Position numbers and translations under genes: made by a program
Notes under the pieces: model-generated
The model's input: only the letters and a program-made list of their open reading frames with translations
The model's database searches: none
What the model was told of the DNA's origin: nothing
Virus record (IMG/VR): IMGVR_UViG_3300045988_036476
Coordinates: 1-41,677 of that record
DNA: 41,677 bases
Reading direction: 5' to 3' (one strand)
DNA from: a virus
Shown: positions 9,024 through 31,873 of the stretch, piece by piece
Position numbering within the stretch: position 1 is the stretch's first letter
Layout of the letters: each line of letters starts with the position of its first letter

Positions 9024-10193
9024 ATGAGCCGGTATCCGTTTACCCCGGAACTACTTGATGCGTTCCCAGAAGAACTGGCAGAGCTATACCGTGCTCTCGA
9101 AAACACGCTGCTTGATGAGATTTGCAGCCGATTGGTCTTCGCAGATCAGCTCAATGAAGTTACAGTGCAGGATATTCAAGCGCTGAGAATGCACGGCATT
9201 GACCTTAAAAGCATTGAAGAAGCGATTAGCAAAACAGCAGGGATTAGCAAACAAAAGCTAAATAGTTTGCTTAATGACGTTGTAGAGCGCAATCAGAAGT
9301 ATTACACCGAAGTCATCGACCTTGCGCATGTAACGCAGCCAGAAACGCTTGTAGACGAGGCTGCAGTGGATGCAATTAAGCGGCAGACCCATGATACATT
9401 CCGCAATTTAACGGCTTCTATGGGTTTCCTTGTGGGCAACACGATGTTAAAGCCCGCGCGCGCTTATCAGTGGGCTTTGGATAACGCAGAAATGCAGATC
9501 CAGAGCGGCGCGATCAACTATAATCAAGCCATCAAGACGGCAGTAAAGCAGCTTGCAGACGGCGGATTGAAGGTAGTTGACTATGAGAGCGGGCATCGAG
9601 ATCAAATTGATGTGGCGGTGCGCAGAGCAGTAATGACTGGCGTAAATCAAATTTGCGCTAAATATACGGAGCAGTCGGCGCAATATCTCGAAACTCCGTA
9701 TTTTGAAGTTTCCGCCCATGCTGGCGCGAGAGATAAGCCGGGGCCGTCACCGTGGTCAAGCCATAAGGATTGGCAAGGCAAGGTTTACAGTATTCGCGCA
9801 GATGACATTTACCCGAGCATCTACGAGGTGTGTGGTCTGGGGGCCGTGGATGGGCTGGAAGGAGCCAACTGCCGCCACCGACGCAATGTTTGGGTCGAGG
9901 GCGTAAGTGAGCGCACATATACAGATGAACAGCTTGCCCATATTGATGATGATCTCGGCTGCGAGTTTGACGGAAAGAAATACACTGCATACGAGGCGAC
10001 GCAGATGCAACGGCGCGTTGAGCGCCAGATTATCAAGCAGAAAAGGCTTGTAACAGCGTATAAGGCAAGTGAGCAAAAGGACGAATATTATGCCGCAAAA
10101 GCGAAACTGGCAAGACTGAACGCCAAATATAAGGCTTTTAGTGAAGCGGCGGGGTTGCCGCTGCAATGGGAAAGGACAAAGGTGCTGTATTGA
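9024..10193 (+). CDS. Minor head / head-morphogenesis protein (Mu F / SPP1 gp7-like)
   Basis: Position after the portal gene. Contains ...GARDKPGPSPWSSHKDWQGKVYS...GANCRHRR. Confidence 0.8.
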   Translation: MSRYPFTPELLDAFPEELAELYRALENTLLDEICSRLVFADQLNEVTVQDIQALRMHGIDLKSIEEAISKTAGISKQKLNSLLNDVVERNQKYYTEVIDLAHVTQPETLVDEAAVDAIKRQTHDTFRNLTASMGFLVGNTMLKPARAYQWALDNAEMQIQSGAINYNQAIKTAVKQLADGGLKVVDYESGHRDQIDVAVRRAVMTGVNQICAKYTEQSAQYLETPYFEVSAHAGARDKPGPSPWSSHKDWQGKVYSIRADDIYPSIYEVCGLGAVDGLEGANCRHRRNVWVEGVSERTYTDEQLAHIDDDLGCEFDGKKYTAYEATQMQRRVERQIIKQKRLVTAYKASEQKDEYYAAKAKLARLNAKYKAFSEAAGLPLQWERTKVLY

Positions 10194-19185: not shown

Positions 19186-19863
19186 ATGGGGCAGACAACA
19201 AGTGCGCTGTGGCGCGAGCTACTTCACAAACCCGGAACAGAACGAGAGTACAAATTTGACGTTGCGGGCACGGAATATGGCAAAGACGCGGAAGTTTCGC
19301 ACTCCGTAGAATCCCAACTGTTTGAAGAATTCGGCATCGGAAACGCTTGCTGCGCAACATTAAAACTGGCACTGTATGCGGACAACGTACCGCGCGCTGC
19401 GACAGTCAAGCGTTATCTCAGGCTTGTTAATGGCGGTCAGGCGACAGAATGGATCCCCAAAGGCGTGTTTTTTACCAACCGCCGTTCCTGCGATGGGAAT
19501 TATTGGGAACTCGAAGCATACGACGCTATGAGGAAAGCTGACGTTGTATGGGAGCCAGACCAGTCGCTTAACTTCCCGATGGCCATGCCTGACGCTGTAA
19601 ACATCTTTTGCCGGTTGATGGGCGTGGAGCTGGACAGCCGCACAGCGCTCAATAGCTCATATACCATCGACTATCCTGCAAACGATTACACCATCCGCAA
19701 CGAGTTGTGCTTTATCGCAGCGGCGCACGGGGGGAACTGGATTATCACCGATGCAGGGAAACTATTGCTTATTCCGCTGTTGTCCATGCCGAGCGAGACA
19801 AACTATCTCATTACAGAAGCGGGCAACGCTATTACATTCGGAGGGGTGAGAATCCTTGTCTGA
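19186..19863 (+). CDS. Distal tail / baseplate component (position-based)
   Basis: GAGGTG RBS. 225 aa. Confidence 0.6.
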   Translation: MGQTTSALWRELLHKPGTEREYKFDVAGTEYGKDAEVSHSVESQLFEEFGIGNACCATLKLALYADNVPRAATVKRYLRLVNGGQATEWIPKGVFFTNRRSCDGNYWELEAYDAMRKADVVWEPDQSLNFPMAMPDAVNIFCRLMGVELDSRTALNSSYTIDYPANDYTIRNELCFIAAAHGGNWIITDAGKLLLIPLLSMPSETNYLITEAGNAITFGGVRILV

Positions 19864-21205
19864 AAAGTATTATGTCGGCAGAGACGTTACAAGTTTTTCC
19901 GACAAGGGCAAGTACAAGCCTATCTCCCGCGTAACGTTGCTTGTGGACGACGAAAATAGCCTGACGGCGGGCGATGATACCGGCATGGAGATTATCGCAA
20001 GCTGTCCTCACTCCACGCAGCCAATGGTAAACGCTTTATTGCAAACCATGAAAGGCTACCAGTATCAGTCATACGAAGCAGGCGCGGCAAACATCGATCC
20101 AGCGGCAGAGCTGGGGGATGGCGTGACAGTTGCGGGCGTGTACTCTCCGTTGTCTAAAATCTCCGACGATGGCCGCGGATATGCTGGTATTTCGTCCCCC
20201 GGAGAAGCGGAGATGGAAGACGAATATCCGTCCGATGGGTACATCACGCAGGAATTCAACCGAAAGATTGCCGAAACACGTTCGACTATCACCAAGACCA
20301 GCGAGGAAATCAACCTCAGAGTGGAGCATATCGACGGGCGGGTATCGGACATCAATCAAACGGTTGATGGAATCAGCTTATCCGTCACGTCAGCATCCAA
20401 CCCGGATGGCCAGACGACCGCGACGATCACGCTCAAAGTCGGGCCAAACAACTACACGGGCTACATCAAGCTCGACGGAAACGTGGACGTCTCCGGTCAG
20501 CTTTCGGCGGACGCGCTGTATTCCGCGCTCGGCGAGATCGCGGACTTGAGCGTCAACCGGCTGTCGACCTCTCGCCGGGTGGTCAAGTACCTCGCTGGCG
20601 ACACAACGGATGACAATTTTATTCGCGTGGCAGAGCAGAGCCTTGAGTTTGTGGCGGGCATCGCCAAGAGCACGACGGAGCAGGCCAAAAACCCCAACGG
20701 GGAGCTGATCTACTGGGAGGCAGACCCCGCGGGCGCATCTATTGGCTCGGACGGGTACCCCTACGCAAACGGCGAGCGCATTTTCACGACCACCAAGCAG
20801 ACGAGCTGGCCGGTGATGGTCTATCAGTACGAGGAGCAGGTCAAGCGCGCGATCTCGTTTGAGTCGGACGGCCAATACTACTACCCTGTGGACGTCTTCG
20901 GCGCGGGCGACAACAACGGCAAGCAGCGCGGCTACCTCGTCAAGCGACAAAACTCGCTGGAGCTGACGTACGAGACGAGCACGGGCAAACAACTCGGGCT
21001 CGCCGCGCGGGATGATGGGTATATGGATCTGATGGGGGTAAGGAAAACCGTTGGGCTTAACTTTTCCGGATGGGACAAGGGCAGCTGGGGTGTTCTGCTG
21101 GAAGGCGTTACGGAAATGCTGAATTACGGCGTCACGCTGAACAGTGCGGGAGTCCCGGTAAAGATCACATACCCGGATGGGACGGACTGCCCAATCTACT
21201 GGTAG
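19856..21205 (+). CDS. Tail-associated / baseplate protein (449 aa)
   Basis: TTG start with a GGAGGGG RBS. Position matches Tal-like proteins. Confidence 0.65.
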   Translation: MSEKYYVGRDVTSFSDKGKYKPISRVTLLVDDENSLTAGDDTGMEIIASCPHSTQPMVNALLQTMKGYQYQSYEAGAANIDPAAELGDGVTVAGVYSPLSKISDDGRGYAGISSPGEAEMEDEYPSDGYITQEFNRKIAETRSTITKTSEEINLRVEHIDGRVSDINQTVDGISLSVTSASNPDGQTTATITLKVGPNNYTGYIKLDGNVDVSGQLSADALYSALGEIADLSVNRLSTSRRVVKYLAGDTTDDNFIRVAEQSLEFVAGIAKSTTEQAKNPNGELIYWEADPAGASIGSDGYPYANGERIFTTTKQTSWPVMVYQYEEQVKRAISFESDGQYYYPVDVFGAGDNNGKQRGYLVKRQNSLELTYETSTGKQLGLAARDDGYMDLMGVRKTVGLNFSGWDKGSWGVLLEGVTEMLNYGVTLNSAGVPVKITYPDGTDCPIYW

Positions 21206-21214
21206 GAGGCGGCA

Positions 21215-22696
21215 ATGGTGATCAAACACAAAAAGAGCTTTTTAACAGGATATCTGACCGGACAGGCAATCAAGCGCGGGTTCAATGGCACGTTTGACGC
21301 GCACCGCCCGGACGGCAGCGGCACGCTGCGCGGCTATGATGCAGCCAGCTTTAAAGCAGGGCTGGCCGCGGGGCTGTGCGGAGACGGATATTTGCTGCCG
21401 TACACGCCGCCGGAGAAAAAACCTGGGATATTTGACGTCGAGGTCAACTGTGATGAGGTCATCATCGACCTGTATCTGCGCAATGCCCGCGGCGAGGCAA
21501 CCGCGCCGAGTATCTACGGACTGCAAGACATGGGGGGGTGGCTGCGGGACAACAATGTCAAGACTATCAGCGACTTCTATGCCTTCTGCGAGCGCACAGC
21601 ACCGCACTTTGGTGGGGTGTTTAGCAAGAAAAATGCAGCACGGATTACGGCATTGTTTTATAACCGCTCTTATTTGCACGAGATATGTGCAAAAAAAACT
21701 CTCCCCTTCTCCTATCTCATTCGCGATGCTTATATGGCCGGCAAGATGACCTGGGAACAGTTTATGGAAAACAAGCTTTCCGTGGATTCCCGCCTGGACA
21801 ACTGGACATTCACACTGACACATCATGTAAAAGCAAACTGCGGAGCAAGTGGCACAGCAGCTTTGACACCGGTATATGTTATTAAGACCTATGTTCTTTG
21901 CCCTGGGAGGTATAGGTTCTCATTCATTGAGACAGTGTCTCCTCCATTTGACGATGACGACACTTCTAAGGCATGGGTGGCAGTTGCTGTCCCTGGAGTG
22001 TTTGGCAATACAAGTAACCTAAAAACGAAACACAGACAAGGTGACCTTTACTATCTTGCATCTGGAGAGAGCCTCGAGTTTGACGTCCCAGTAGGGTCTA
22101 TGAAGCATTCGTACCTCTACATCAATCTGTGGCCATGGCCGCCTTTTAAGGTGGACGGATATAATGCTATGACGGATCAGGCGCACCGCAGCTATCATGC
22201 GGGGATGACTCACATTCAAACGCTTGCTATGGATCTGCAGCTTGTTGAGATCTATCCGATGCACACACCGGATAAAGAGGTAAATTTGACAAGACTGCTC
22301 CGGGCGGTTGATGCCCTCGATGATTATAGAATCAAAAACGAAGAACTCGACAGACTCGAAGATCTTACACTGGTGGATGAATACAAGCTGCTGGTCAGTG
22401 GTTCGCCACGTGATCCAAAGGTATACCGGGCGACTGCAGCAAAAACAAAACACGGTGTTGGAGAGGACGATCTGCCAAAAGCACAGATCCTCACTCTTGC
22501 AACGGTTGAAAGTGGCATGAACGAGGTAAACGCCAGTGGAGTGGAGACACCGGTCGACGCAGTATCTCTTAGCCTCGTTCTGGGGGAGGCTGCACCGGGG
22601 CTGTCTTACCAGAAACACCAGATCGCAGGAGAAAAACTGAATTTGATCAATTCGTGGACTGCTCCGATCGTACGGAGGAGGGATGAGGAGAAGTGA
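21215..22696 (+). CDS. Tail fibre / receptor-binding candidate (493 aa)
   Basis: AGGAGG RBS. Central part (~21830-22500) is visibly lower in GC. Confidence 0.6.
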   Translation: MVIKHKKSFLTGYLTGQAIKRGFNGTFDAHRPDGSGTLRGYDAASFKAGLAAGLCGDGYLLPYTPPEKKPGIFDVEVNCDEVIIDLYLRNARGEATAPSIYGLQDMGGWLRDNNVKTISDFYAFCERTAPHFGGVFSKKNAARITALFYNRSYLHEICAKKTLPFSYLIRDAYMAGKMTWEQFMENKLSVDSRLDNWTFTLTHHVKANCGASGTAALTPVYVIKTYVLCPGRYRFSFIETVSPPFDDDDTSKAWVAVAVPGVFGNTSNLKTKHRQGDLYYLASGESLEFDVPVGSMKHSYLYINLWPWPPFKVDGYNAMTDQAHRSYHAGMTHIQTLAMDLQLVEIYPMHTPDKEVNLTRLLRAVDALDDYRIKNEELDRLEDLTLVDEYKLLVSGSPRDPKVYRATAAKTKHGVGEDDLPKAQILTLATVESGMNEVNASGVETPVDAVSLSLVLGEAAPGLSYQKHQIAGEKLNLINSWTAPIVRRRDEEK

Positions 22697-24089: not shown

Positions 24090-24247
24090 GCAAGCTGAGG
24101 GAGCGAGTCATCGCGTACAACACGGAGGTCAAGACCGCACTGCAAGCAGTCTACAACGACCTCAATCGAGGGCAGCAGAAGAAACTGCTGCGCAATCCCG
24201 CCATCCGCGCCATGTTTGAGCGGTATGGCGTGGAGATTGAAGAATAA
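24086..24247 (+). CDS. Small hypothetical protein (53 aa; below the track cutoff)
   Basis: ATG 24086 overlaps the previous stop. Translation: MSKLRERVIAYNTEVKTALQAVYNDLNRGQQKKLLRNPAIRAMFERYGVEIEE. Confidence 0.45.
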   Translation: MSKLRERVIAYNTEVKTALQAVYNDLNRGQQKKLLRNPAIRAMFERYGVEIEE

Positions 24248-24266
24248 GGGAGAAAGGGAGCGGGAT

Positions 24267-24569
24267 ATGGATAATGCAAAGCACTACGATGATGCAGAGA
24301 TCGCGCTGATCGAAAGTCGATGCAAAAGCAATACGCACCGCATCAACGAGCTGGCCGAGCATCAGGCCGCGCTTGATAGGCTCGCTGCATCGGTCGAGGT
24401 GCTGGCAACAAAGCAAGAGACGGTCGAAGGCGACGTGAAAGAGATCAAAGAGGACGTGAAAGCCATCACGGGCAAGGCGGGGAAACGGTGGGACAGTCTG
24501 GTCGACAAGGCTCTCGCGGCGCTGGCGGGCGCGTTTATCGCGTGGCTGCTGTCGGGGGTAGCCTTATGA
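24267..24569 (+). CDS. XhlA-like lysis-associated membrane protein
   Basis: GGGAG RBS. N-terminal coiled coil plus a single C-terminal TM (ALAALAGAFIAWLLSGVAL). Confidence 0.65.
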   Translation: MDNAKHYDDAEIALIESRCKSNTHRINELAEHQAALDRLAASVEVLATKQETVEGDVKEIKEDVKAITGKAGKRWDSLVDKALAALAGAFIAWLLSGVAL

Positions 24570-24760
24570 AGAAGCTGAGAAAGCGGGACAAGTACGTCAT
24601 CGCGGCAGTGCTCAACCTCTGCTGGTACTGCATTGCGGTGCTCGTATTGACCGCGCATGACAAGGTAGTGCCGGACAGCCTGACCGTCGCGTGGTTCGCC
24701 GCGTGGACGGCAGAACTCGGCCTGCTGGCTGGAATCAAAATCAAGGGAAAGGACGAATAA
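24566..24760 (+). CDS. Holin-like two-TM protein
   Basis: ATGA coupling. 64 aa with two hydrophobic helices. Confidence 0.6.
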   Translation: MKKLRKRDKYVIAAVLNLCWYCIAVLVLTAHDKVVPDSLTVAWFAAWTAELGLLAGIKIKGKDE

Positions 24761-24761
24761 C

Positions 24762-24956
24762 ATGAACGAATTACTGAACAAGAGAATCGCAAACCTTCTC
24801 AGCGTGAAGAGCCTTGTGACGATTGCGCTGACGGCGACCTTCTGCGCGCTGACAGTACAGTCGAAGGTGACGCAGGAATTCAACACCGTGTACCTCATGG
24901 TCATCGCCTTCTACTTTGGCACGCAGAACGCGGCGGGCAGCGCGAAGGGAGAGTAA
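24762..24956 (+). CDS. Holin
   Basis: 64 aa with two TM helices (...SLVTIALTATFCAL...VYLMVIAFYFG) immediately upstream of the endolysin. Confidence 0.65.
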   Translation: MNELLNKRIANLLSVKSLVTIALTATFCALTVQSKVTQEFNTVYLMVIAFYFGTQNAAGSAKGE

Positions 24957-24960
24957 AAGC

Positions 24961-25536
24961 ATGGCGAGAGCAGAAGACATCCTTGCCATCGCGCGCAAGG
25001 AGATCGGCATGGTGGAGCAGCCGGGCAACCGCCAGAAGTACGGCAAAGCCTACGGCATGGACGGCGTGTACTGGTGTATGCAGTTCGTGTGGTGGTGCTT
25101 CCAGCAGGTGGACAAGACGCTCTTCTATGGCGGCGGGAAGACCGCGAGTTGCGGCGAGCTGATGAACTACGCCAAAGCCCACGGCCAATGGGTCACATCC
25201 GGCTATCAGCCGGGCGACGTGCTCATCTATGACTTTCCCAACACGAAGGTCAAGACCGACCATACGGGCATCTGCGAGAGCGTGAGCGGGCAGTACGTGA
25301 TCGCCATCGAGGGCAATACCTCCAACGGCAACACCGGCAGCCAGAGCAACGGCGACGGGGTGTATCGCCGCAAGCGCAAGCTGTCGCTGGTGCTGGGCGC
25401 ATACCGCCCAAAGTATGAGGCGAGCTACCGCGAAATGCTCAAGAAGCGCTCCGGCCTCGAGGACAAGACGATGGACTACCTCGCGGCCTACAAGTACGGC
25501 AGCGACCTCATCCGCAAGTTGGCAACGATGAAATAA
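24961..25536 (+). CDS. Endolysin, CHAP-domain peptidase
   Basis: GGGAGAG RBS. Catalytic-type motifs GVYWCMQFVWWCF (Cys) and DHTGICESV...IEGNTS (His). Confidence 0.8.
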   Translation: MARAEDILAIARKEIGMVEQPGNRQKYGKAYGMDGVYWCMQFVWWCFQQVDKTLFYGGGKTASCGELMNYAKAHGQWVTSGYQPGDVLIYDFPNTKVKTDHTGICESVSGQYVIAIEGNTSNGNTGSQSNGDGVYRRKRKLSLVLGAYRPKYEASYREMLKKRSGLEDKTMDYLAAYKYGSDLIRKLATMK

Positions 25537-25627
25537 TTGTGCCCGAATCGGGCACGGAAAGGGAAACGGGCGGGAGACCTGCAACGTCTCCCCTCGCGTG
25601 AGCGCTCTGCAAGCCCCGGTGCACAGC

Positions 25628-25873
25628 ATGGACAAGCAGCACCGAGCGATCCGCGCACAGTTATCCTCTATGGCCCCCAAGCGGGCCGTGGCGTATATCT
25701 TATCGTTTGAGCTGCCAGCGGACGAGGCGGCGTGCCTCATCGAGTGCGACGTGCGGCGCAAGAGCTACGCACAAGTGTGCGAGGCGCTGCACCTGTCGCC
25801 GGAGGCGGTCAACCGCTGCCGCAGGCGGGCATACCAAAAAATGGCAGACGGACAAAGAGAGCACCGAGGTTAA
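25628..25873 (+). CDS. Sigma-70 region-4-like HTH protein
   Basis: SYAQVCEALHLSPEAVNRCRRRAYQKM. The start is ambiguous (GTG 25598 or ATG 25628). Confidence 0.55.
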   Translation: MDKQHRAIRAQLSSMAPKRAVAYILSFELPADEAACLIECDVRRKSYAQVCEALHLSPEAVNRCRRRAYQKMADGQREHRG

Positions 25874-25889
25874 TCGGTGCTCTCTTTTT
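25855..25889. terminator. Strong bidirectional rho-independent terminator
   Basis: AAGAGAGCACCGA-ggttaa-TCGGTGCTCTCTT followed by TTTA, flanked by A/T runs. Lies between convergent genes. Confidence 0.8.
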
Positions 25890-26355
25890 ATTCGTTCGGT
25901 TCGAGCTGGATGACCGTCCATCCGTGCCACCGACAGTGATTGTATGACGCGGCATACAGCATCTTGGCCGTACGCTTGGCCTCATACTTATCCTCTGGGT
26001 CAATGCCAAACAGCTCCACATGATCTCTGACAAATTTCGATAAGTTTTTGATCTCCCACTCACGAGCACCGTTTGATACTCGATACCATTTTGCACGGAT
26101 ATTGGTCTCATATGGCCCTGTCAACGGGGATTCCAGCAGCGCCTTAACTCGAGCGGCTGGGGATTGCTGGGCCTCTGCCATAGCACAGCCGCAGGACGTG
26201 GTATGCCCGGTCATAAGATTCCTGCCCGATACGTCGGTCCCTTTGCCGCAATCGCATCGGCAGAGCCATTTTGCCCGACCGTATTTATCCGGCTCCGCAG
26301 GCTCAAGCACAGTCCAGTGCCCAAAAGTCTGCCCTGTTAGGTCATACGTGCCCAT
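25888..26355 (-). CDS. Cys-rich zinc-ribbon protein (155 aa)
   Basis: LTGQTFGHWTVLEPA...WLCRCDCGKGTDVSGRNLMTGHTTSCGC is a recurrent phage N-terminal module. The start overlaps the upstream stop (TAATG). Confidence 0.7.
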   Translation of the reverse strand: MGTYDLTGQTFGHWTVLEPAEPDKYGRAKWLCRCDCGKGTDVSGRNLMTGHTTSCGCAMAEAQQSPAARVKALLESPLTGPYETNIRAKWYRVSNGAREWEIKNLSKFVRDHVELFGIDPEDKYEAKRTAKMLYAASYNHCRWHGWTVIQLEPNE

Positions 26356-26636
26356 TACAGCAGCTCACTTATATCCACACCCAGCGCGTCGGCGAGCGCA
26401 AATAAGGTTTTTGCAGCCATATTGCCCGTCTCGATCTCGCCGGATTCAACTTTCTGGATCTGCCGGATATAGATGCCGGATTTTTGAGCCAGCTCGGACT
26501 GCGTCATGTCTGCCATGCGGCGAGACCACTCAAGCTTAGTGATGGGGCGGTTGTGGCAGTCCCGCCCGTAGTTGACCAGAGAACAGGCGGTGCAGTCGCC
26601 GTCCGCCCGCTGGCAGTCGCTATACTTTCGTCTCAT
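26355..26636 (-). CDS. XRE-family HTH protein with a Cys-rich N-terminus (93 aa)
   Basis: GAAGGTG RBS. CQRADGDCTACSLVNYGRDC followed by MTQSELAQKSGIYIRQIQKVESGE. Confidence 0.7.
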   Translation of the reverse strand: MRRKYSDCQRADGDCTACSLVNYGRDCHNRPITKLEWSRRMADMTQSELAQKSGIYIRQIQKVESGEIETGNMAAKTLFALADALGVDISELL

Positions 26637-26652
26637 ATCGTAGTCACCTTCT

Positions 26653-26871
26653 TTAGAGGAGATCGTAGCCGACGAGAGGGACGCTGCCGTATTCGTCCGG
26701 CTCCTGACCATACACGGGACGGAGGAGGCGGCCCTCGTCGATGTCCCATTCCTCACCGTTCCAGCAGTCGTTGCCGTACTGCTGAAGCCATTCGCCAAGA
26801 GCGGCGAGATTTTCGTCGGTGGGGTTTTTAGTGGCCGCCTCGCGGAGTTCTTCATATCTGTATTCGTTCAT
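26653..26871 (-). CDS. Small, highly acidic hypothetical protein (72 aa)
   Basis: AGGAGG RBS. Begins MNEYRYEELREAATKNPTDENLAALGEWLQQYGNDCWNGEEWDIDEG... Confidence 0.6.
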   Translation of the reverse strand: MNEYRYEELREAATKNPTDENLAALGEWLQQYGNDCWNGEEWDIDEGRLLRPVYGQEPDEYGSVPLVGYDLL

Positions 26872-26893
26872 GATGTTCTTCCTCCTGTAAGTT

Positions 26894-27154
26894 TTATAAA
26901 TCGAGTATGGTCGCGCCGCCGTTGCGGGCGTCGACAATGTTGCTGATCTCCTCGTAGCAGGTCGCAGGGTCCGGCTCGCCGCCCTCCCAGTCGTCGGCGA
27001 TGGGGTCGCCGCCCGCATTGAGCGCGTCCAGCGCCCCAACGACCAGAGCGCGGTCCGCGTCACAAAGGTAGTAGATGCAGGTGCCGTTCTCGCCCATGAC
27101 AGCGAGGTGCAGCCGGCCGGCATTGTCTTCATAAATGCTGTAATTGTACTTCAT
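26894..27154 (-). CDS. Small acidic hypothetical protein (86 aa)
   Basis: CAGGAGG RBS. Begins MKYNYSIYEDNAGRLHLAVMGENG... Confidence 0.6.
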   Translation of the reverse strand: MKYNYSIYEDNAGRLHLAVMGENGTCIYYLCDADRALVVGALDALNAGGDPIADDWEGGEPDPATCYEEISNIVDARNGGATILDL

Positions 27155-27196
27155 TTTCGTTTCCTCCTGAGGTTTTCCCTCTTGCTTTATGTGCTT

Positions 27197-27225
27197 AGTA
27201 TACGCCAATATTGGCGTAAAGTCAA
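27197..27225 (-). promoter_or_regulatory. Near-consensus sigma-70 promoter (TTGACT-17-TATACT) with a 16-bp palindromic operator in the spacer
   Basis: The minus strand reads TTGACTttACGCCAATATTGGCGTATACT. The palindrome ACGCCAATATTGGCGT spans 27202-27217. Confidence 0.7.
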
Positions 27226-27255
27226 GAGTTTTTTGAGCTTTTTGCAAAATATTTT

Positions 27256-27286
27256 TTGACCAAATATTGACCAAAGACTGACCATT
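27256..27286 (+). promoter_or_regulatory. Three direct TGACCA repeats with 11-bp periodicity
   Basis: TTGACCAAA at 27256, TTGACCAAA at 27267, CTGACCATT at 27278. Located in the divergent control region. Confidence 0.55.
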
Positions 27287-27341
27287 TGGCAAACGAATTT
27301 TATGGCATCATAAAAACAGAATAAGAAAGAAGGTGCGCGAG

Positions 27342-27464
27342 ATGTACGAACGACTTTTGGCTTGTGGATTTACCGAGCAAATGGCGATGGACATTCTCGC
27401 GCTTTTTCCTGACCCTGACGAGCTGAGAGCATACGTCTACTTTGCAGAGATGTTCCATGTATAG
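27342..27464 (+). CDS. Small hypothetical protein (40 aa; below the track cutoff)
   Basis: AAGAAGGTG RBS 7 nt upstream of the start. Translation: MYERLLACGFTEQMAMDILALFPDPDELRAYVYFAEMFHV. The stop overlaps the next start. Confidence 0.4.
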   Translation: MYERLLACGFTEQMAMDILALFPDPDELRAYVYFAEMFHV

Positions 27465-27840
27465 CTATTTCAACCCGAATCCAAACGGGCGCAACGTCAG
27501 CGACTGCACCGTGCGCGCGATCTGCAAGGCGACGGGGAAGGACTGGGGCGAAGTTTATTTGTCTCTGTGCATACAGGGATACTTGGACGGCGACTTGCCC
27601 AATGCAAACGCCTGTTGGGGCGCATATCTGCGGTCGCTCGGCTATCGGCGCTATATCATGCCGGACACTTGCCCGGACTGCTACACGGTCGGCAGATTTG
27701 CTGATGAGCACCCGCGCGGGACGTATATTCTCGCGCTTTCTGGTCATGTGGTCTGCGTGCAGGATGGTGTAATTTACGACAGCTGGAACAGCGAGAACGA
27801 AATCCCGCTTTATTATTGGGTCAAAGAAACGGAGGAATGA
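27457..27840 (+). CDS. Hypothetical protein with a papain-like Cys/His/Asp arrangement
   Basis: Contains YFNPNPNGRNVSDCTVRAI...LSGHVVCVQDGVIYDSWNS. Assignment to a peptidase fold is inference. Confidence 0.6.
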   Translation: MYSYFNPNPNGRNVSDCTVRAICKATGKDWGEVYLSLCIQGYLDGDLPNANACWGAYLRSLGYRRYIMPDTCPDCYTVGRFADEHPRGTYILALSGHVVCVQDGVIYDSWNSENEIPLYYWVKETEE

Positions 27841-27842
27841 AC

Positions 27843-28280
27843 ATGGCATATCCCTATTTCAATCCCTATTATCCGCAGCCAATGCCGGACAACCTCATGC
27901 AGATGCGGCAGATGCAGCAGCCACAGATGCAGCCCATGCAGCAGCCTATGTCGCAGCCAGTGCAACAGAACCCCATTGCACAGGGCGGCGTGCAGTGGGT
28001 AAGCGGCGAGCAGGAGGCGAGAGGGTATCTCATCGCGCCGAACTCCGCTGTGGCGCTGTGGGATTCTACCGCGCCGACTGTGTATCTCAAGCAGGCGGAT
28101 GCAAGCGGCAAGCCGACGCTAAAGATTTATGACCTTGTAGAACGCGCAGAAACGCCCCGTACAGCGCCGCAGGAAAAGGGCGTGGAATTTGTCACCCGCA
28201 AGGAGTTTGACGCGCTGGCGGCTCTTGTGGGCGAATTAAAGGGCAAGAAGAAGCGCAAGGAGGACGATGACGATGAATAA
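27843..28280 (+). CDS. Protein with a Q/M/P-rich N-terminus (145 aa)
   Basis: ACGGAGG RBS. Begins MAYPYFNPYYPQPMPDNLMQMRQMQQPQMQPMQQPMSQPVQQ, then VQWVSGEQEARGYLIAPNSAVALWDS...KIYDLVER. Confidence 0.65.
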   Translation: MAYPYFNPYYPQPMPDNLMQMRQMQQPQMQPMQQPMSQPVQQNPIAQGGVQWVSGEQEARGYLIAPNSAVALWDSTAPTVYLKQADASGKPTLKIYDLVERAETPRTAPQEKGVEFVTRKEFDALAALVGELKGKKKRKEDDDDE

Positions 28281-28491
28281 CCCCTTTTTCGGTGCGCTCG
28301 GCGGCGGGCAGATGCCTGGACCGATGGGTGAGCTGATGCAGCTCAAGCAGAAATTCCAACAGTTCCAAAGCGGCTTTCAGGGAAACCCAAAAGAAGAAGT
28401 CAATAAGCTCCTGCAATCTGGCGCTATGAGCCAGCAGGAGTTAAACCAACTGCAATCTATGGCAAAACAGTTTGAGCATTTATTCCATTGA
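28273..28491 (+). CDS. Small Q-rich protein (72 aa)
   Basis: AAGGAGG RBS 9 nt before ATG 28273. Begins MNNPFFGALGGGQMPGPMGELMQLKQKFQQFQSGFQGNPKEEV... Confidence 0.55.
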   Translation: MNNPFFGALGGGQMPGPMGELMQLKQKFQQFQSGFQGNPKEEVNKLLQSGAMSQQELNQLQSMAKQFEHLFH

Positions 28492-28542
28492 TCTTATCGT
28501 GGCCGCGATTTGATAAATAAAATTTATGAAAGGAGAGATAAT

Positions 28543-29268
28543 ATGTCTCTTTCCGACGGTGCTCCCATGATGACTATGCCGGTCGCGCCCGCGAACAATT
28601 ACGGCGGCGGTATGGGCATGTGGGGCGACAGCTGGATCTGGATTATCGTTCTTTTCCTCTTCGGCTGGGGCCGCAACGGATTTGGCAACGGTAACGGCGG
28701 TGGTGTAATGGACGGCTATGTTCTGACCTCCGACTTCGCAAGTGTTGAGCGTAAGCTTGACAGTATTGCAAATGGCGTTTGCGATTCCACGTTTGCCCTG
28801 AACAATGCCATTTCCGGCGGCTTTGCTACGACCACGCAGGCCATCAATACCGGCTTCGGCAATGCCGAACTTTCCCGCGCCAACCAGCAGGCCGCGCTGA
28901 TGCAGCAGCTCAACGCCATGCAGATGCAGGCTGCAAATTGCTGCTGCGAGAATCGCGCGGCTATCGCGCAGGTGCGCTACGACATGGCGACGCAGGCGTG
29001 CGACACTCGCAACACGGTCAACACGGCAGCCCGCGACATCATTGACGCGAACAACCAGAATTCGAGAGCAATCTTGGACTTCCTCACGCAGAGCAAACTG
29101 TCCGATCTCCAGACTGAGAACCAGAATCTCAAGCTGGCTGCGTCTCAGGCTGCACAGAATAACTACCTCATTTCGCAGCTTCGCCCTTGCCCTTCCCCCG
29201 CCTACATTACCTGTAACCCGTGGGCAGGTAGCGGCTACGGCGGCTGTGGTTCCGGCTGCGGCTGCTGA
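28543..29268 (+). CDS. Single-TM protein with a helical Cys-containing ectodomain and a GCGSGCGC tail (241 aa)
   Basis: AAAGGAGAG RBS. TM helix WIWIIVLFLFGW, then a Gly-rich linker, AANCCCENRAAI, and the C-terminus ...CNPWAGSGYGGCGSGCGC. Confidence 0.7.
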   Translation: MSLSDGAPMMTMPVAPANNYGGGMGMWGDSWIWIIVLFLFGWGRNGFGNGNGGGVMDGYVLTSDFASVERKLDSIANGVCDSTFALNNAISGGFATTTQAINTGFGNAELSRANQQAALMQQLNAMQMQAANCCCENRAAIAQVRYDMATQACDTRNTVNTAARDIIDANNQNSRAILDFLTQSKLSDLQTENQNLKLAASQAAQNNYLISQLRPCPSPAYITCNPWAGSGYGGCGSGCGC

Positions 29269-29300
29269 CAACTGCATAGCATAGCTTTTTGTTGGCGATG

Positions 29301-29320
29301 TTTTGTTGACGTCAACAAAA
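29301..29320. promoter_or_regulatory. 20-bp perfect palindrome TTTTGTTGACGTCAACAAAA
   Basis: Lies in the 137-bp gap between genes 28543-29268 and 29406-29846. Confidence 0.5.
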
Positions 29321-29405
29321 TGTTCGGCCCCGTGCCGATACTGACAACAACGCGGCGGGGCTATTGCCTCGCCGCTGTATTTTAATTGCCTCGATTTCGA
29401 GGCAT

Positions 29406-29846
29406 ATGAAAGGACTGATTATTTTGGCAGAGTACACAAACGCGAATATTGTGAGCGTAGCCGCAGGCCAGAACATTCCCCTGACTGAAACGGCGGTCAA
29501 TAGCAAGCCCTGCATCGTGCATCGTCAGGGCGCAGGCGTTGTCACGCTTCGCGGCCTCACCAATCAAAACCGCGCTCTGTTTCGGGTTTCCTTTGGCGGC
29601 AACATCGCTATTCCCACCGGAGGCACGGTTGAGTCCATCACGGCGGCGCTTGCCATTAACGGAGAGCCGTTGACCAGTGCAACGGCGGTCGTCACGCCCG
29701 CGGCGGTAGGGAACTACTTTAACATTTATGTTTCCGCACAGGTCTGCGTTCCGAAAAACTGCTGCCTGACGGTCGCAATGGAAAACACCAGCACTCAGGC
29801 CGTCAACTTCGCCAACTCGAACCTGACGGTTGAGAGAATCGCGTGA
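29406..29846 (+). CDS. BclA-C-terminal / C1q-TNF-like beta-sandwich protein (146 aa)
   Basis: The pattern ...FRVSFGGNIAIPTGG...ALAINGEPLTSA...NFANSNLTVERIA parallels the BclA CTD (...IQVNGVPV...ASIIIEKVA) as I recall it. The GAGG RBS lies inside hairpin 29389-29404. Confidence 0.6.
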   Translation: MKGLIILAEYTNANIVSVAAGQNIPLTETAVNSKPCIVHRQGAGVVTLRGLTNQNRALFRVSFGGNIAIPTGGTVESITAALAINGEPLTSATAVVTPAAVGNYFNIYVSAQVCVPKNCCLTVAMENTSTQAVNFANSNLTVERIA

Positions 29847-29859
29847 AAGGAGAATGGAC

Positions 29860-30267
29860 ATGAGCAAGAAAGCAATGTATGATTTGCGCAATATGCTGTG
29901 CGACGAACTCGACGAGCTGGCACGTAAGGGCGAACTTGGCGCGGGCGATCTCGAAATTGCGCATAAGCTGACTGGCACCATCAAGAACATCGATAAAATC
30001 GAGATGATGGAGGACGACGGCTATTCCCGCGATGAAGACTATTCTCGCCGCTACTCCCGCGATGGAGACCGGCAGTCGGGTATGCGCGGCGGTTATGAAC
30101 GGGATATGTCCAATGCGAGACGCGGCACGCACTACGTCCGCGGCCACTATTCCCGTGATGGCGGAATCGACAGCATGAAACGCCAGTTGCAGGAAATGCT
30201 GGACAACGCCGACGACGAAAGCATCCGCAGGGCCATCCAGCGCTGCATGGACACGATCGAGGGCTAA
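29860..30267 (+). CDS. Hypothetical protein with a central YSRD/RGG low-complexity region (135 aa)
   Basis: GAAAGGAG RBS. Contains ...MMEDDGYSRDEDYSRRYSRDGDRQSGMRGGYERD... Confidence 0.65.
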   Translation: MSKKAMYDLRNMLCDELDELARKGELGAGDLEIAHKLTGTIKNIDKIEMMEDDGYSRDEDYSRRYSRDGDRQSGMRGGYERDMSNARRGTHYVRGHYSRDGGIDSMKRQLQEMLDNADDESIRRAIQRCMDTIEG

Positions 30268-30282
30268 AGGGGGTGCTCCCCT

Positions 30283-30603
30283 ATGGTCGACGAGAATGAG
30301 GTCAAGCGCTGGATAGCTCGCCTTGAAACAGAGGAATCGAGTTGGACAAACTATGAGCGCCTTGCCGTGCTGTATGCCATCCGTGACCAGCAAAGCGGCA
30401 GCAGAGAGAGGGCTTTGCCGATGGCATACTCCGCAGCGCCCGCGCCAGTTAGCGCCGAAACATACGGCGACAGCGATTTTCTGCGCGCGGTGGCAGATGT
30501 TCCACCGGACAAGGCGTGGGAGATTATGGACGAGCTGATGGACAGCTTGAAAATCGTAAACGAGCGCGTCTATAATAGCGTCATGCGCAAACTGGAAAAA
30601 TAA
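30283..30603 (+). CDS. Hypothetical protein (106 aa)
   Basis: AAGGGGG RBS. Contains ...WTNYERLAVLYAIRD...DSDFLRAVADV...IMDELMDSLKIVNERVYNSVMRKL. Confidence 0.65.
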   Translation: MVDENEVKRWIARLETEESSWTNYERLAVLYAIRDQQSGSRERALPMAYSAAPAPVSAETYGDSDFLRAVADVPPDKAWEIMDELMDSLKIVNERVYNSVMRKLEK

Positions 30604-30604
30604 A

Positions 30605-30627
30605 TTGCAGATGGAATTACAGATGCG
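30605..30627 (+). repeat. Two arm-type repeats TTRCAGATG (left of the attP core)
   Basis: TTGCAGATGGA at 30605 and TTACAGATGCG at 30617. Confidence 0.6.
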
Positions 30628-30670
30628 TGTCAAAAAACCGTGTAATATCAATGCTTTTGCGGATTTGGTT

Positions 30671-30698
30671 GCGGGTTCGACTCCCGCCGCCTCCACCA
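30671..30698 (+). other. tRNA 3'-end fragment (T-arm, acceptor strand, discriminator, CCA); probable attP core
   Basis: GCGGG-TTCGACT-CCCGC, then CGCCTCC, A, CCA. No matching 5' acceptor strand (GGAGGCG) lies upstream, so this is a fragment and not a tRNA gene. Confidence 0.65.
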
Positions 30699-30707
30699 AT
30701 AAAAAAA

Positions 30708-30737
30708 CCTCGCAGTCTCAACGGCTGCGGGGTTTTT
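30708..30737. terminator. Bidirectional terminator next to the tRNA fragment
   Basis: A9 run, then CCTCGCAG-tctcaacgg-CTGCGGGG, then TTTTT. Confidence 0.7.
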
Positions 30738-30821
30738 CTTGTATTTGCAAGGGTTTTCGGTCTTACCTGTTTGCACATTACTTGCGATATTTGCAAGCCA
30801 TCTTCCGCCAAAACAGTGTTT

Positions 30822-30855
30822 TTGCAGATGAATTGCAGATGAAATTACAGATGAA
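30822..30855 (+). repeat. Three arm-type repeats TTRCAGATGAA (right of the core, overlapping the 3' end of int)
   Basis: Copies at 30822, 30833 and 30845, all in the same orientation as the left pair. Confidence 0.6.
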
Positions 30856-31873
30856 ATTCGGATTCAAAAAAGCCGTCAACGGCATCTGCCACTGCTACGG
30901 CTTTATCATCCATGGTGTGCTGATATACATTTTTAAGCATGTTGTTTGTGGAGTGCCCCATGCGCTCCATTGCGTATTTGTCCGGGACATTGAGCCTGAG
31001 CATAACCGATGCGTTTACATGGCGCAGGTCGTGGAAGCGAAACGGCGAAACTCCGCAGCGGGCACACGCGCGTTGCAGATGCTTATACAGGACATTTCTG
31101 GTTGCGTGGACAATATACTCATCTGTTCGCGGTGTTGCGTCAAGCAGCCCCATAATATACGGCGGCACTTTTAGTTTTCTGTTGCCGCTGTAAGTTTTTG
31201 GCTGCTTGAGCTGCGGGCCGTCCTCACCGTCTACCATTGCTTGCTTGATCGTCAGGATATCACCGTCAAGACACTCCCATGTTAGACCTCTGATCTCCGA
31301 TGTACGGAGGCCGAGCCAGACGGCCAGAAGGAAAGGCAATTCAAAGCCCGTGCCCTTGCAATCCTCGTGCAGAATTCTAATTTCTTCCATGGTAGGTATT
31401 TTGATTTTGGGGGCTTCCTTCTGCGGCAAAGATACACGGAACACCTTATCCGGGCATTCCTCTGCCATTGCCGCCGTAAATAAGCCGTAAGCGTTGCGGA
31501 CGTACTTAGGGGACTTTTCACGTGCCATCTTATTCACGGCACGCTGCACGCGATCCTGCGTCAACGCGGAGCACTTAACGCTCATCAGCTCCTGGAAAAC
31601 CACCTTGCGGAGTTTTCTGTACCCGTTGACGGTGGAGGGGGAGAGTATTGCGTCCTTGCTGTCAATGTATCGGTCGATAGCATCACCAACCGTGCGCTCA
31701 GACGCATGAGCGGCAGACTTCGCACCGGACTTCAACGCGGCGGCTTCATTCTCCGCTTGCCGTTTGGTAAGGGCTGTGACGGACACGCGCTTTCCGTCTA
31801 CCATGACACTGACATTCCAGTTGCCAGATGGTAGCAGTTTTGCTTTTGGAATTTTCATTAAATCCCCCTCCAA
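30845..31873 (-). CDS. int: Tyrosine integrase
   Basis: Motifs LRTSEIRGLTW (Arg), HDLRHVNAS (HxxR) and GHSTNNMLKNVYQHT (Tyr). N-terminal SAM-like domain. Adjacent to attP. Confidence 0.9.
   Translation of the reverse strand: MEGDLMKIPKAKLLPSGNWNVSVMVDGKRVSVTALTKRQAENEAAALKSGAKSAAHASERTVGDAIDRYIDSKDAILSPSTVNGYRKLRKVVFQELMSVKCSALTQDRVQRAVNKMAREKSPKYVRNAYGLFTAAMAEECPDKVFRVSLPQKEAPKIKIPTMEEIRILHEDCKGTGFELPFLLAVWLGLRTSEIRGLTWECLDGDILTIKQAMVDGEDGPQLKQPKTYSGNRKLKVPPYIMGLLDATPRTDEYIVHATRNVLYKHLQRACARCGVSPFRFHDLRHVNASVMLRLNVPDKYAMERMGHSTNNMLKNVYQHTMDDKAVAVADAVDGFFESEFHL

Follow-up and report, generated by a model that had tools for sequence, protein, structure and literature searches.

The viral contig IMGVR_UViG_3300045988_036476 of IMG/VR is a complete siphovirus contig of 41.7 kb (41,677 nucleotides, analysed over its full length and hereafter called the window), and we are concerned here with the genes that lie between its lysis genes and its integrase. 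The original prediction, made from the letters of the DNA alone, had treated twelve genes at 25888-30603 as one divergently transcribed accessory island. Comparison with relatives shows that the region consists of two unrelated units: Unit A, a left arm of four genes (L1 to L4), and Unit B, a right arm of eight genes (R1 to R8) together with a flanking gene, Sig (25598-25873), which belongs with the right arm. Unit B, the cassette of the following paragraphs, is a real, previously undescribed accessory module of gut Firmicutes phages that still awaits a function; it is found in thousands of gut phage contigs and is abundant in human-gut data. Its behaviour is not that of a spore or envelope system expressed from a prophage. 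That the right arm is a coherent system can be regarded as settled. As to what the system does, we favour an accessory assembly that Sig would activate late, as the lytic cycle ends, and that would form in the cytoplasm around R5 and R6, a reading that we would place somewhat short of an even bet.

About 190 related loci were compared overall. R6 was the entry point to the main set of 99 loci, of which 17 come from genomes, 80 come from IMG/VR, and two are annotated phages, and the twelve window proteins were run against this set with tblastn; a second set of 68 loci was collected through Sig instead of R6. Gene starts were corrected from homologues, giving R1 as 27342-27464, R2 as 27457-27840 (127 amino acids, aa), R7 as 29854-30267, and a TTG at 29424 as the most likely start of R6 (140 aa). 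All twelve predicted open reading frames (ORFs) are in place, and each has homologues in related loci. The features of Unit B are given below, with the number of the 99 loci that contain a match to each gene.

25598-25873, plus strand: Sig, 81-91 aa (likely ATG 25628), with a sigma-70 region-4 helix-turn-helix (HTH) only; 71 of 99 loci
27257-27313, plus strand: control region of the R cassette, with TGACCA three times at an 11-bp period (27257-27284) and a -10-like element at about 27301-27313
27329-27335, plus strand: ribosome-binding site (RBS) of the R cassette, GAAGGTG in the window
27342-30603, plus strand: the right arm, R1-R8, strictly collinear
27342-27464, plus strand: R1, 40 aa, its stop codon overlapping the start of R2; 58 loci
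27457-27840, plus strand: R2, 127 aa, compact alpha/beta protein, putative cysteine peptidase (phrog_3754, 3e-36); 84 loci
27843-28280, plus strand: R3, 145 aa, with a Q/M/P-rich N-terminus, a conserved core of ~55 aa, and a charged helical tail (phrog_21718, 6e-33); 86 loci
28267-28491, plus strand: R4, 74 aa, Gln-rich (phrog_22984, 7.6e-19); 85 loci
28543-29268, plus strand: R5, 241 aa (phrog_16490, 1.9e-36); 96 loci
29269-29385, plus strand: conserved structured RNA in the R5-R6 spacer, three hairpins in a single-sequence fold
29301-29320, plus strand: RNA hairpin 1
29324-29338, plus strand: RNA hairpin 2
29352-29375, plus strand: RNA hairpin 3, the terminator, a GC-rich stem and then a T run
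29424-29846, plus strand: R6, 140 aa (146 aa from ATG 29406; phrog_20016, 4.5e-50); 99 loci
29854-30267, plus strand: R7, 137 aa, two helical ends around a YSRD/RGxY low-complexity centre (phrog_28802, 2.9e-9); 96 loci
30283-30603, plus strand: R8, 106 aa, helical; 80 loci

Matches to the left arm are few: L3 and L4 are each found at 15 of the 99 loci, L1 at eight, and L2 at seven. The commonest layout is Sig-R1-R2-R3-R4-R5-R6-R7-R8 with the left arm absent, and Sig lies directly 5' of R1 or R2 in about 70 of the 99 loci. The gap between Sig and R2 is no longer than about 350 bp in 49 of the 71 loci and measures 700-3100 bp, with variable content, in the other 22; because of these gap contents and the gene counts, we regard the left arm as an insert at a hot spot and the right arm as a fixed unit. 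The proposal that all twelve genes form one system does not hold, as the left arm is a sporadic insert absent from most relatives. Nor does a single control region drive both arms, as had been suggested; the two promoters belong to independent modules that stand back to back by happenstance.

The expectation that the right-arm genes would travel together was borne out, R2 to R7/R8 being collinear in nearly all of the 99 loci. Dulem virus 33 and Butyrivibrio virus Ceridwen also keep the R2-R8 order, with protein identities of 30-55%, and in both the genes stand just after the endolysin gene. Within the window, the start and stop codons of neighbouring right-arm genes overlap or closely abut, and the GC content of the arm (0.52-0.55) is inside the range of the phage itself. 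When loci were collected through Sig, 59 of the 68 had the standard cassette, eight had divergent variants that share the RNA motif described below, and one had a clean deletion. In this last locus (L172, 7243-8440), Sig is followed by an L4 gene and then by R8 and the integrase gene, with L3 through R7 lost; its flanks are 96-97% identical to the window.

It had been cautioned that clusters of this kind often resolve into unrelated morons without a common role, which is the prior expectation at this genomic position. The caution was apt for the left arm, which has the sporadic, moron-type distribution, and R2 does also occur alone in Bacillus, Geobacillus, and Lak phages. For the right arm this distribution was not found: gene order is constant across lineages at the protein identities given above, start and stop codons overlap or abut, one control region is common to the genes, and even variant cassettes retain the internal RNA element. 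We therefore give almost no credence to unrelated morons as an explanation of R1-R8.

The first putative regulatory part of Unit B is Sig. It matches Pfam Sigma70_r4_2 (PF08281) at 1.6e-8 (34.5 bits against a cut-off of 25.7), and sigma-70 region 2 is absent from its 81-91 residues; as region 4 stands alone, we take Sig to be a DNA-binding protein and not a sigma factor. Neither a terminator nor a promoter was found in the interval that separates Sig from the endolysin gene. The stretch from the endolysin stop codon to Sig does contain a perfect 7-bp hairpin (GTGCCCGAATCGGGCAC, 25541-25557), which lacks a T run.

The second is the control region. The three TGACCA repeats spaced 11 bp apart, noted in the original prediction, are present at 27257-27284, and none of 100 shuffles matched them. 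In every lineage, with or without the left arm, three repeats of 11-bp period stand upstream of R1, followed about 20-21 nt past the repeats by a -10-like element and then by an RBS, GGAGGTG. Self-match upstream of R1 averages 0.42 at a shift of 11 and 0.22-0.32 at the other shifts. No canonical -35 element is present in the promoter. The repeat sequence varies by lineage and tracks the C-terminal helix of Sig, a correspondence that holds across the 1.5-1.8 kb of an intervening left arm:

Sig C-terminal helix ...SPEAVNRCRRRAY (NRC): repeat TGACCA
Sig C-terminal helix SPETVKRCRRRAY: repeat GACCTTT
Sig C-terminal helix SVDGLAKLRRRAY: repeat CGGGCA (AKL type)
Sig C-terminal helix SVDGLYKLRRRAY: repeat GGGCAGAAT
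Sig C-terminal helix ...KKYR(R/Q)(K/R)AY: repeat CAC/CCC-TTT

We infer that Sig is the dedicated DNA-binding regulator of the cassette and, because Sig would be made together with the lysis genes, that the cassette would be the last to switch on. Comparable proteins are the phage late-gene activators phi29 p4, Mu Mor/C, and T4 MotA/AsiA, by which recognition of the -35 is replaced or supplemented, and the small, stand-alone HTH regulator GerE. Like them, Sig is a small DNA-binding protein, here encoded by a phage, and its gene adjoins a promoter in which a -10-like element and phased repeats further upstream are present and a canonical -35 is missing. Unlike them, Sig is a bare sigma-70 region-4 domain without homology to these activators, and its binding and activation are putative. 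Small ORFs upstream of R1 in Ceridwen and Dulem virus 33, which look HTH-like by eye, were considered as Sig candidates and set aside, as they match neither the Sig hidden Markov model (HMM) nor Pfam.

The third is the structured RNA between R5 and R6. In a set of 24 non-redundant spacers, standard pairing is seen in 89% of cells, compared with 43-60% when the partners are slid; ten pairs are changed on both sides, and none of 500 shuffles attained the covariation score. The sequence of hairpin 1 differs widely among loci while its pairing is retained. The many G-U pairs suggest a plus-strand RNA. With a covariance model, exactly one copy is found per locus, always just 5' of R6, and the element stays there even where an HNH-like gene separates it from R5. 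The variant cassettes give weaker matches in the same place, and the model did not find the element in Ceridwen, CPD1 (a Clostridium perfringens phage), the crAss-like phage, the Bacteroides phage, or the archaeal virus discussed below. Rfam, searched over 25500-31000 at E values up to 1, returned nothing beyond the 3' end of a transfer-messenger RNA (tmRNA) and a chance S15 leader match elsewhere.

In 88% of cells, hairpin 2 could pair instead with the 5' arm of the terminator, as read off the consensus, and this weakly suggests a terminator/antiterminator switch. The element is like known leader RNAs of that type in that its conserved hairpins end in an intrinsic terminator just 5' of a gene and in having a candidate mutually exclusive pairing. 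It differs from them in lying inside an operon, between two protein genes, and in belonging to no Rfam family. Two further observations concern the same spacer. A fourth hairpin (29388-29403) overlaps the ribosome-binding region of R6 in some lineages. In addition, about 21 loci have a 300-nt R5-R6 spacer in which an extra ORF (some 65-70 aa, beginning MATFKDVKEKYIDYLMD...) separates R6 from the RNA element (L007, about 8240-8440; L008 and L011, about 9790-9980 in each); in the prophage loci L104-L107, a 65-aa gene is called at this position.

Among the proteins themselves, R2 is a putative enzyme. The papain-like Cys/His/Asp layout proposed for it proved to be invariant among homologues: D16, C17, H97, and D108 are unchanged in 11 and in 56 sequences. 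An AlphaFold2 model with a mean predicted local distance difference test (pLDDT) of 93.9 starts the first helix at residue 17 and places strands at 97-102 and 105-108, so that in the model Cys17 opens a helix and His97 and Asp108 lie on strands, as papain-like peptidases require. Foldseek gave no significant match to this model in the PDB, the best being AvrPphB (E 0.13) and Josephin-2 (template-modelling score, TM, 0.42), and the weak top matches are all of the papain-like class. R2 matches nothing in Pfam or NCBIfam. The likeness to papain-like peptidases, deubiquitinases, and NlpC/P60 amidases (AvrPphB, Josephin, Tae4) lies in the Cys at a helix start with His and Asp on following strands; R2 differs in its length (127 aa, against 152-188 aa for the matched chains) and in the best scores (E 0.13, TM ≤0.42).

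For R6, the suggested beta-sandwich like the BclA C-terminal domain (BclA-CTD) or C1q/TNF was upheld at moderate confidence by AlphaFold2 and Foldseek, and we would extend the comparison to ExsFA. The model is an all-beta protein of eight strands (pLDDT 66, predicted TM score 0.62) with about 30 disordered residues at its N-terminus. Its best PDB matches are ExsFA (7r1m), BxpB (8d02), F-BclA (9h3d), and BclA-CTD (1wck), followed by C1q/TNF ligands, at TM 0.5-0.56 and E from 6.5e-4. Among predicted viral structures (BFVD), R6 matches small uncharacterised proteins from siphovirus, podovirus, and myovirus contigs as well as the C-terminal knobs of collagen-like proteins. Like BclA-CTD and ExsFA/BxpB, R6 is modelled as a jelly-roll, and like ExsFA/BxpB in particular it would stand alone, at roughly 140-150 aa, and begin with a disordered stretch. 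It differs in a sequence identity of just 12-16%, in lacking a collagen-like region, in its moderate model confidence, and in being encoded by phages among whose hosts are some not known to sporulate. R6 has no Pfam BclA_C (PF18573) match at E ≤0.1; a variant, R6', reaches BclA_C over its full length at 19.5 bits (E 9e-4), which is below the cut-off of 38.

R5 is the only R protein with a hydrophobic stretch. It is made up of a short hydrophobic segment flanked by Gly and Trp (maximum hydropathy 1.69, at residue 26), a long Q/N-rich region, a CCC motif, and a C-terminus rich in Cys and Gly. CCC and the GCGSGCGC tail had both been predicted, and CCC is invariant in eight distant homologues. With hhalign, R5 is linked at 97.6-99.6% probability to proteins of CPD1, the crAss-like phage cr116_1, Bacteroides phage C3_41T2LP, and a Methanomassiliicoccales virus. 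The family is mosaic, with C-terminal types swapped among relatives, and the protein of the window is identical to one recorded for 'Siphoviridae sp. ctfhy6'. R5 resembles the i-spanin Rz and phi29 p16.7 in that a hydrophobic anchor at the N-terminus leads into a long helical region with Cys residues, and it adjoins lysis genes in several lineages. It differs from them in showing no sequence similarity, in having no partner lipoprotein, in its mostly monoderm, or archaeal, hosts, and in its CCC motif and Cys/Gly tail, for which those proteins have no counterpart. A spanin role was rejected for R5, given the missing partner lipoprotein and the monoderm or archaeal hosts.

The remaining R proteins are small and of biased composition. 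The predicted Gln-richness was confirmed (17 Gln in R3, 13 in R4), as were the YSRD repeats of R7. Distant homologues were found with hhalign for R1 in Dulem virus 33 (58%), for R3 in CPD1 (96%), and for R8 in the CPD1 protein CPD1_042 (70%). Pfam, NCBIfam, and PADLOC gave no usable matches to the R proteins, and sequence searches of the PDB gave nothing significant for R5, R6, or L1-L4 as single sequences or for R2 and R3 as profiles. As no hydrophobic stretch is found in them, the R proteins other than R5 are without an export signal.

Taken in order, the favoured mechanism would run as follows. Sig, a free-standing sigma-region-4 protein transcribed with the lysis genes, would bind the three phased repeats (centres near -36, -47, and -58) and activate a promoter having only a -10-like element, so that expression of the cassette would fall in the last stage of the lytic cycle. 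The terminator-containing R5-R6 RNA would set or gate the expression of R6-R8 relative to R1-R5. As the products lack signal peptides, they would assemble inside the cell, around a membrane-anchored R5, with further components in R6 (TNF/BclA-like and presumably a trimer), in R3, R4, and R7, which are of low complexity, and in the helical R8. R2, as a Cys-His-Asp enzyme, would process or cross-link other components, and the assembly would either act at lysis or be released by it. The data show the division into two units, the conserved gene order, the layout of the control elements, the structured RNA, and the folds of R2 and R6; the binding of Sig to the repeats, the late timing, the physical assembly, and its role are proposed.

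Several observations weigh against this reading. L172 has lost L3-R7 between flanks 96-97% identical to the window, and for this reason the cassette must be considered dispensable. In CPD1 and C3_41T2LP, the R5-type genes stand amid DNA-metabolism (early) genes and not late genes. The cassette occupies the end of the prophage, from the lysis genes to the right attachment site (attR), and has its own promoter and terminators, which is the usual spot for genes expressed from a prophage. No Sig homologue was detected in Ceridwen, Dulem virus 33, or loci L006-L019, and shared ancestry or linkage alone could yield the co-variation of Sig with the repeats. Finally, the hydrophobic segment of R5 is short, at 13-16 residues. 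The L172 deletion and the presence of the module among early genes in CPD1 and the Bacteroides phage argue against an essential virion or lysis role.

Lysogenic conversion, which the original prediction saw in the position of the genes, would make the cassette a set of prophage-expressed genes that alter the host, for example by superinfection exclusion or by a membrane change through R5. The part of this claim that stood is positional: the cassette does lie between late genes and the attachment site, at the prophage end, with a promoter region of its own and flanking terminators. The natural deletion in L172 shows dispensability, as conversion would have it, and the C-terminal swaps of R5 are what arms-race proteins would show. 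The rest of the claim was weakened, since the cassette is conserved and collinear and not sporadic, its GC content is normal for the phage, its putative regulator lies at the end of the lysis operon, and it is present in Ceridwen. Only lytic growth has been seen for that phage, no integrase was found, and its authors consider it virulent (PMC7372960). The occurrence of R5 relatives in crAss-like and Bacteroides phages likewise shows that the module is not specific to lysogeny. Moreover, R5 alone could reach the envelope, the other seven proteins being without an export signal; the promoter, which has no canonical -35, seems to require a late-operon protein; and PADLOC gave no matches. On balance, we consider conversion unlikely.

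A virion role would cast R6, with its N-terminal anchor and TNF-like knob, and R5, as a helical stalk, as dispensable head or tail fibres or decorations; R7 and R8 would then serve in assembly, and R2 in maturation, as a protease. The R6 fold is that of knobs in viral fibres and collagen-like proteins, and the R5 relatives have been annotated by others as 'spike protein/glycoprotein' (cr116_1) and 'outer capsid protein/viral fiber' (C3_41T2LP). The mosaic build of R5 and the late timing proposed above would fit as well, and small, dispensable, N-terminally anchored head fibres have a precedent in crAss001 (PMC10172136). Against these points, the hydrophobic segment of R5 is of the membrane type, and the cassette stands apart from the structural operon, following the lysis genes, and is found among early genes in some phages. 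R6-like proteins occur in siphovirus, podovirus, and myovirus contigs alike and so are not bound to one virion architecture, and neither R5 nor R6 is similar to the tail proteins of the window phage, the 449-aa and 493-aa proteins of its tail-fibre region among them. We hold virion accessories to be decidedly unlikely.

The other suggestion of the original prediction was a spore-surface assembly, akin to exosporium or coat, which an infected cell or lysogen undergoing sporulation would make in its mother-cell cytoplasm. The folds and composition do fit this idea: the best structural matches of R6 are the exosporium proteins ExsFA/BxpB and BclA, R6' has its sub-threshold BclA_C match, the partner proteins are rich in Cys, Tyr, and Gln, and a variant cassette encodes a weak rubrerythrin-like protein. 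Transglutaminases have a Cys-His-Asp triad, and the putative triad of R2 is like theirs. No protein would require export, the presumed regulator is a small HTH protein somewhat like GerE, and the hosts of close relatives are Oscillospiraceae. The idea is at odds with the range of hosts in which the cassette and R5 occur. A phage of Butyrivibrio fibrisolvens, a species not known to sporulate, carries the cassette, and relatives of R5 are found in viruses of Bacteroides and of Methanomassiliicoccales, which are methanogenic archaea. R6 contains neither a collagen-like GXX repeat nor a known exosporium-targeting motif, and the same is true of its relatives; of 534 clusters at 50% identity, the best 150 span 72-196 aa and are for that reason too short for a long collagen-like region. 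A sporulation-type promoter was not identified, and the C1q/TNF fold is widespread among viruses. A spore-surface role seems improbable to us, though it may apply in spore-forming hosts.

Returning to the cassette as a proposed end-of-cycle assembly, its distribution and variation deserve description in their own right. Searches with R5, R6, and R2 each gave at least 8000 significant matches, and one R5 sequence alone is present on 271 contigs. Bins holding close relatives are metagenome-assembled genomes of Oscillospiraceae and other Clostridia. Two variant cassettes, L153 (9022-11440) and L125 (8903-11276), lie behind the same Sig gene and left arm; their R5 is at 27% identity, and they keep R1, R3-like, R4-like, R5-like, and R8 genes, carry R6', and have no R2. 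In place of R7 they encode a weak rubrerythrin-like or a DUF7841 protein, the latter also being found in a Bacteroides phage cassette. CPD1 has R3-like and R8-like genes besides its R5-type gene.

In Bacteroidota phages (L101, 2377-4861; L103, 4489-7734), a parallel cassette follows the R5-type gene. It encodes a beta-rich protein containing a CC motif, another of ~170 aa whose tail is a coiled coil (phrog_28898), and a mini-protein with YDRD/RE repeats, together with a DUF7841 protein and an HExxH metallopeptidase. The neighbours of R5 in cr116_1, C3_41T2LP, and the archaeal virus are like R proteins in size and composition; hhalign, HMMs, and a 97-sequence R6 profile found no homology between them and R2-R4 or R6-R8, which leaves R5 as the one shared component. 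We found no paper on phrog_16490, DUF7841, or BclA-like proteins in Oscillospiraceae prophages, and the crAss001 structural atlas contains no counterpart of R5 or R6 (PMC10172136). The PHROG families of the cassette proteins are all labelled 'unknown function'.

We turn now to Unit A, whose features in the window are these:

25888-27226, minus strand: the left arm overall, L1-L4 and promoter
25888-26355, minus strand: L4, 155 aa, with a CxCxC...CGC motif (phrog_374 'HNH endonuclease', 2.9e-21, residues 3-61)
26355-26636, minus strand: L3, 93 aa, an XRE/Cro-type HTH protein with a four-Cys N-terminal extension (Pfam HTH_3, PF01381, 1.5e-8)
26653-26871, minus strand: L2, 72 aa, acidic, isoelectric point (pI) 4.05
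26894-27154, minus strand: L1, 86 aa, acidic, pI 4.05
27197-27225, minus strand: near-consensus promoter TTGACT-17-TATACT, with a palindrome (27202-27217) in its spacer

The predicted acidity of L1 and L2 is evident from their pI values, and the predicted promoter (27225-27197) and 16-bp palindrome (ACGCCAATATTGGCGT, with a chance expectation of 0.04 matches) are both present. In relatives, the palindrome is altered in a compensatory way, ACGCCAATATTGGCGT becoming ACGCTAATATTAGCGT, and the promoter hexamers are kept; because of this pattern, the palindrome fits an operator bound by a dimer. L3 scores 35 bits against the HTH_3 cut-off of 23, with weak matches to 434 Cro and repressor, and is presumably the protein that binds this operator. 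The left arm thus has the appearance of a self-repressing mini-operon, in which a strong, housekeeping-type promoter would drive L1 and L2, then L3, the presumed repressor, and then the HNH-related L4.

Anti-defence operons of the acr-aca kind have a strong, probably self-repressed promoter, small acidic ORFs, and then an HTH gene. The left arm resembles them in its strong promoter with an inverted-repeat operator, its small acidic ORFs, its promoter-distal HTH gene, its variable content, and its hot-spot location. It differs in the four-Cys N-terminal extension of L3 and in the HNH-related gene that ends the operon. The resemblance is one of architecture only, and it counts against an anti-defence reading that L1 and L2 have no match in Pfam, PHROGs, NCBIfam, PADLOC, or the PDB.

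L4 has no Pfam match, the Pfam HNH catalytic domain was not found in it, and a PDB 'HNH endonuclease' match at residues 68-116 is weak (E 0.024). Its homologues vary in position, being found left of the control region, between R5 and R6, after R6, and after R8, and in CPD1 in the R4-R5 gap. Such varying sites among collinear genes fit the sporadic positions of HNH homing endonucleases. Endonuclease genes also lie directly beside R5-type genes in unrelated phages (L002, 8046-8597, minus strand; L100, 4017-4667; L103, 3770-4390; compare 25888-26355 in the window). The gene beside R5 is of the NUMOD4 and HNH_3 type in Dulem virus 33 and is annotated as I-HmuI in Bacteroides phage C3_41T2LP. As at least two kinds of endonuclease gene occur there in addition to the L4 type, the R5 gene or its flanks may well be a recurring homing target.

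The surroundings of the region are as follows. On the plus strand, the tape-measure and tail genes are followed by those for an XhlA-like protein, a holin, and a CHAP endolysin (24216-25536), then by Sig and the study region. Beyond it come the core of the phage attachment site (attP), a tyrosine integrase gene (30845-31873, minus strand), and a CI-like repressor gene. In integrated copies, bacterial genes directly follow R8, which identifies the study region as the right end of the prophage. Both flanking terminators that had been predicted are present, and in the region as a whole there are 17 terminator-like sites, against 8.8 +/- 2.7 in shuffles. The boundary features are:

25854-25887, no strand assigned: hairpin terminator common to Sig (plus) and the left arm (minus), a 14-pair stem and then a T run
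30625-30737, plus strand: attP core, a copy of a tmRNA 3' end (best part 30664-30699; Rfam tmRNA 1.8e-5, 3' end only), and the terminator that comes after it
30703-30737, plus strand: terminator after the attP core, 15 pairs

The attP core is outside the cassette and marks its outer boundary. It corresponds to the 3' end of tmRNA (ssrA), namely the T-arm plus acceptor, with GCGGGTTCGACTCCCGCCGCCTCCACCA at about 30671-30698. A tRNA at this place was considered and rejected, as ARAGORN finds no full tRNA or tmRNA and the core is a 3' tmRNA fragment according to Rfam. Direct repeats of 26 nt, 92% identical, flank the core at 30600-30625 and 30828-30853 and could be arm-type sites of the integrase. 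Away from the study region, the tail-fibre region of the prophage relatives L104-L107 (about 1400-4515; equivalent to about 19856-22696 in the window) encodes a Peptidase_S74 (intramolecular chaperone) protein and a second protein with faint or weak collagen-repeat matches.

All eight R proteins are without known function, and no component maps to a characterised system beyond generic folds, the RNA element being likewise outside Rfam. Even so, Unit B bears the marks of a working system: a fixed gene order, a linked regulator that tracks its presumed DNA site, and a covarying RNA. Phages of three host phyla or domains are linked by the R5 family, in which CCC is invariant. It is possible, if doubtful, that Sig and R1-R8 represent an undescribed and very abundant system, a Sig-switched 'post-late' operon with an internal RNA attenuator, encoding a Cys/Gln-rich, membrane-anchored assembly of R5 and an exosporium-like TNF-fold trimer, whose core family would be common to viruses of gut Firmicutes, Bacteroidota, and methanogenic archaea. 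If this is true, the cassette would point either to a general step that closes an infection or to a function tied to the gut way of life. Solving it would provide annotation for thousands of human-gut phage genomes and may reveal a new late step of infection, or a new structure of the virion, cell, or spore surface.

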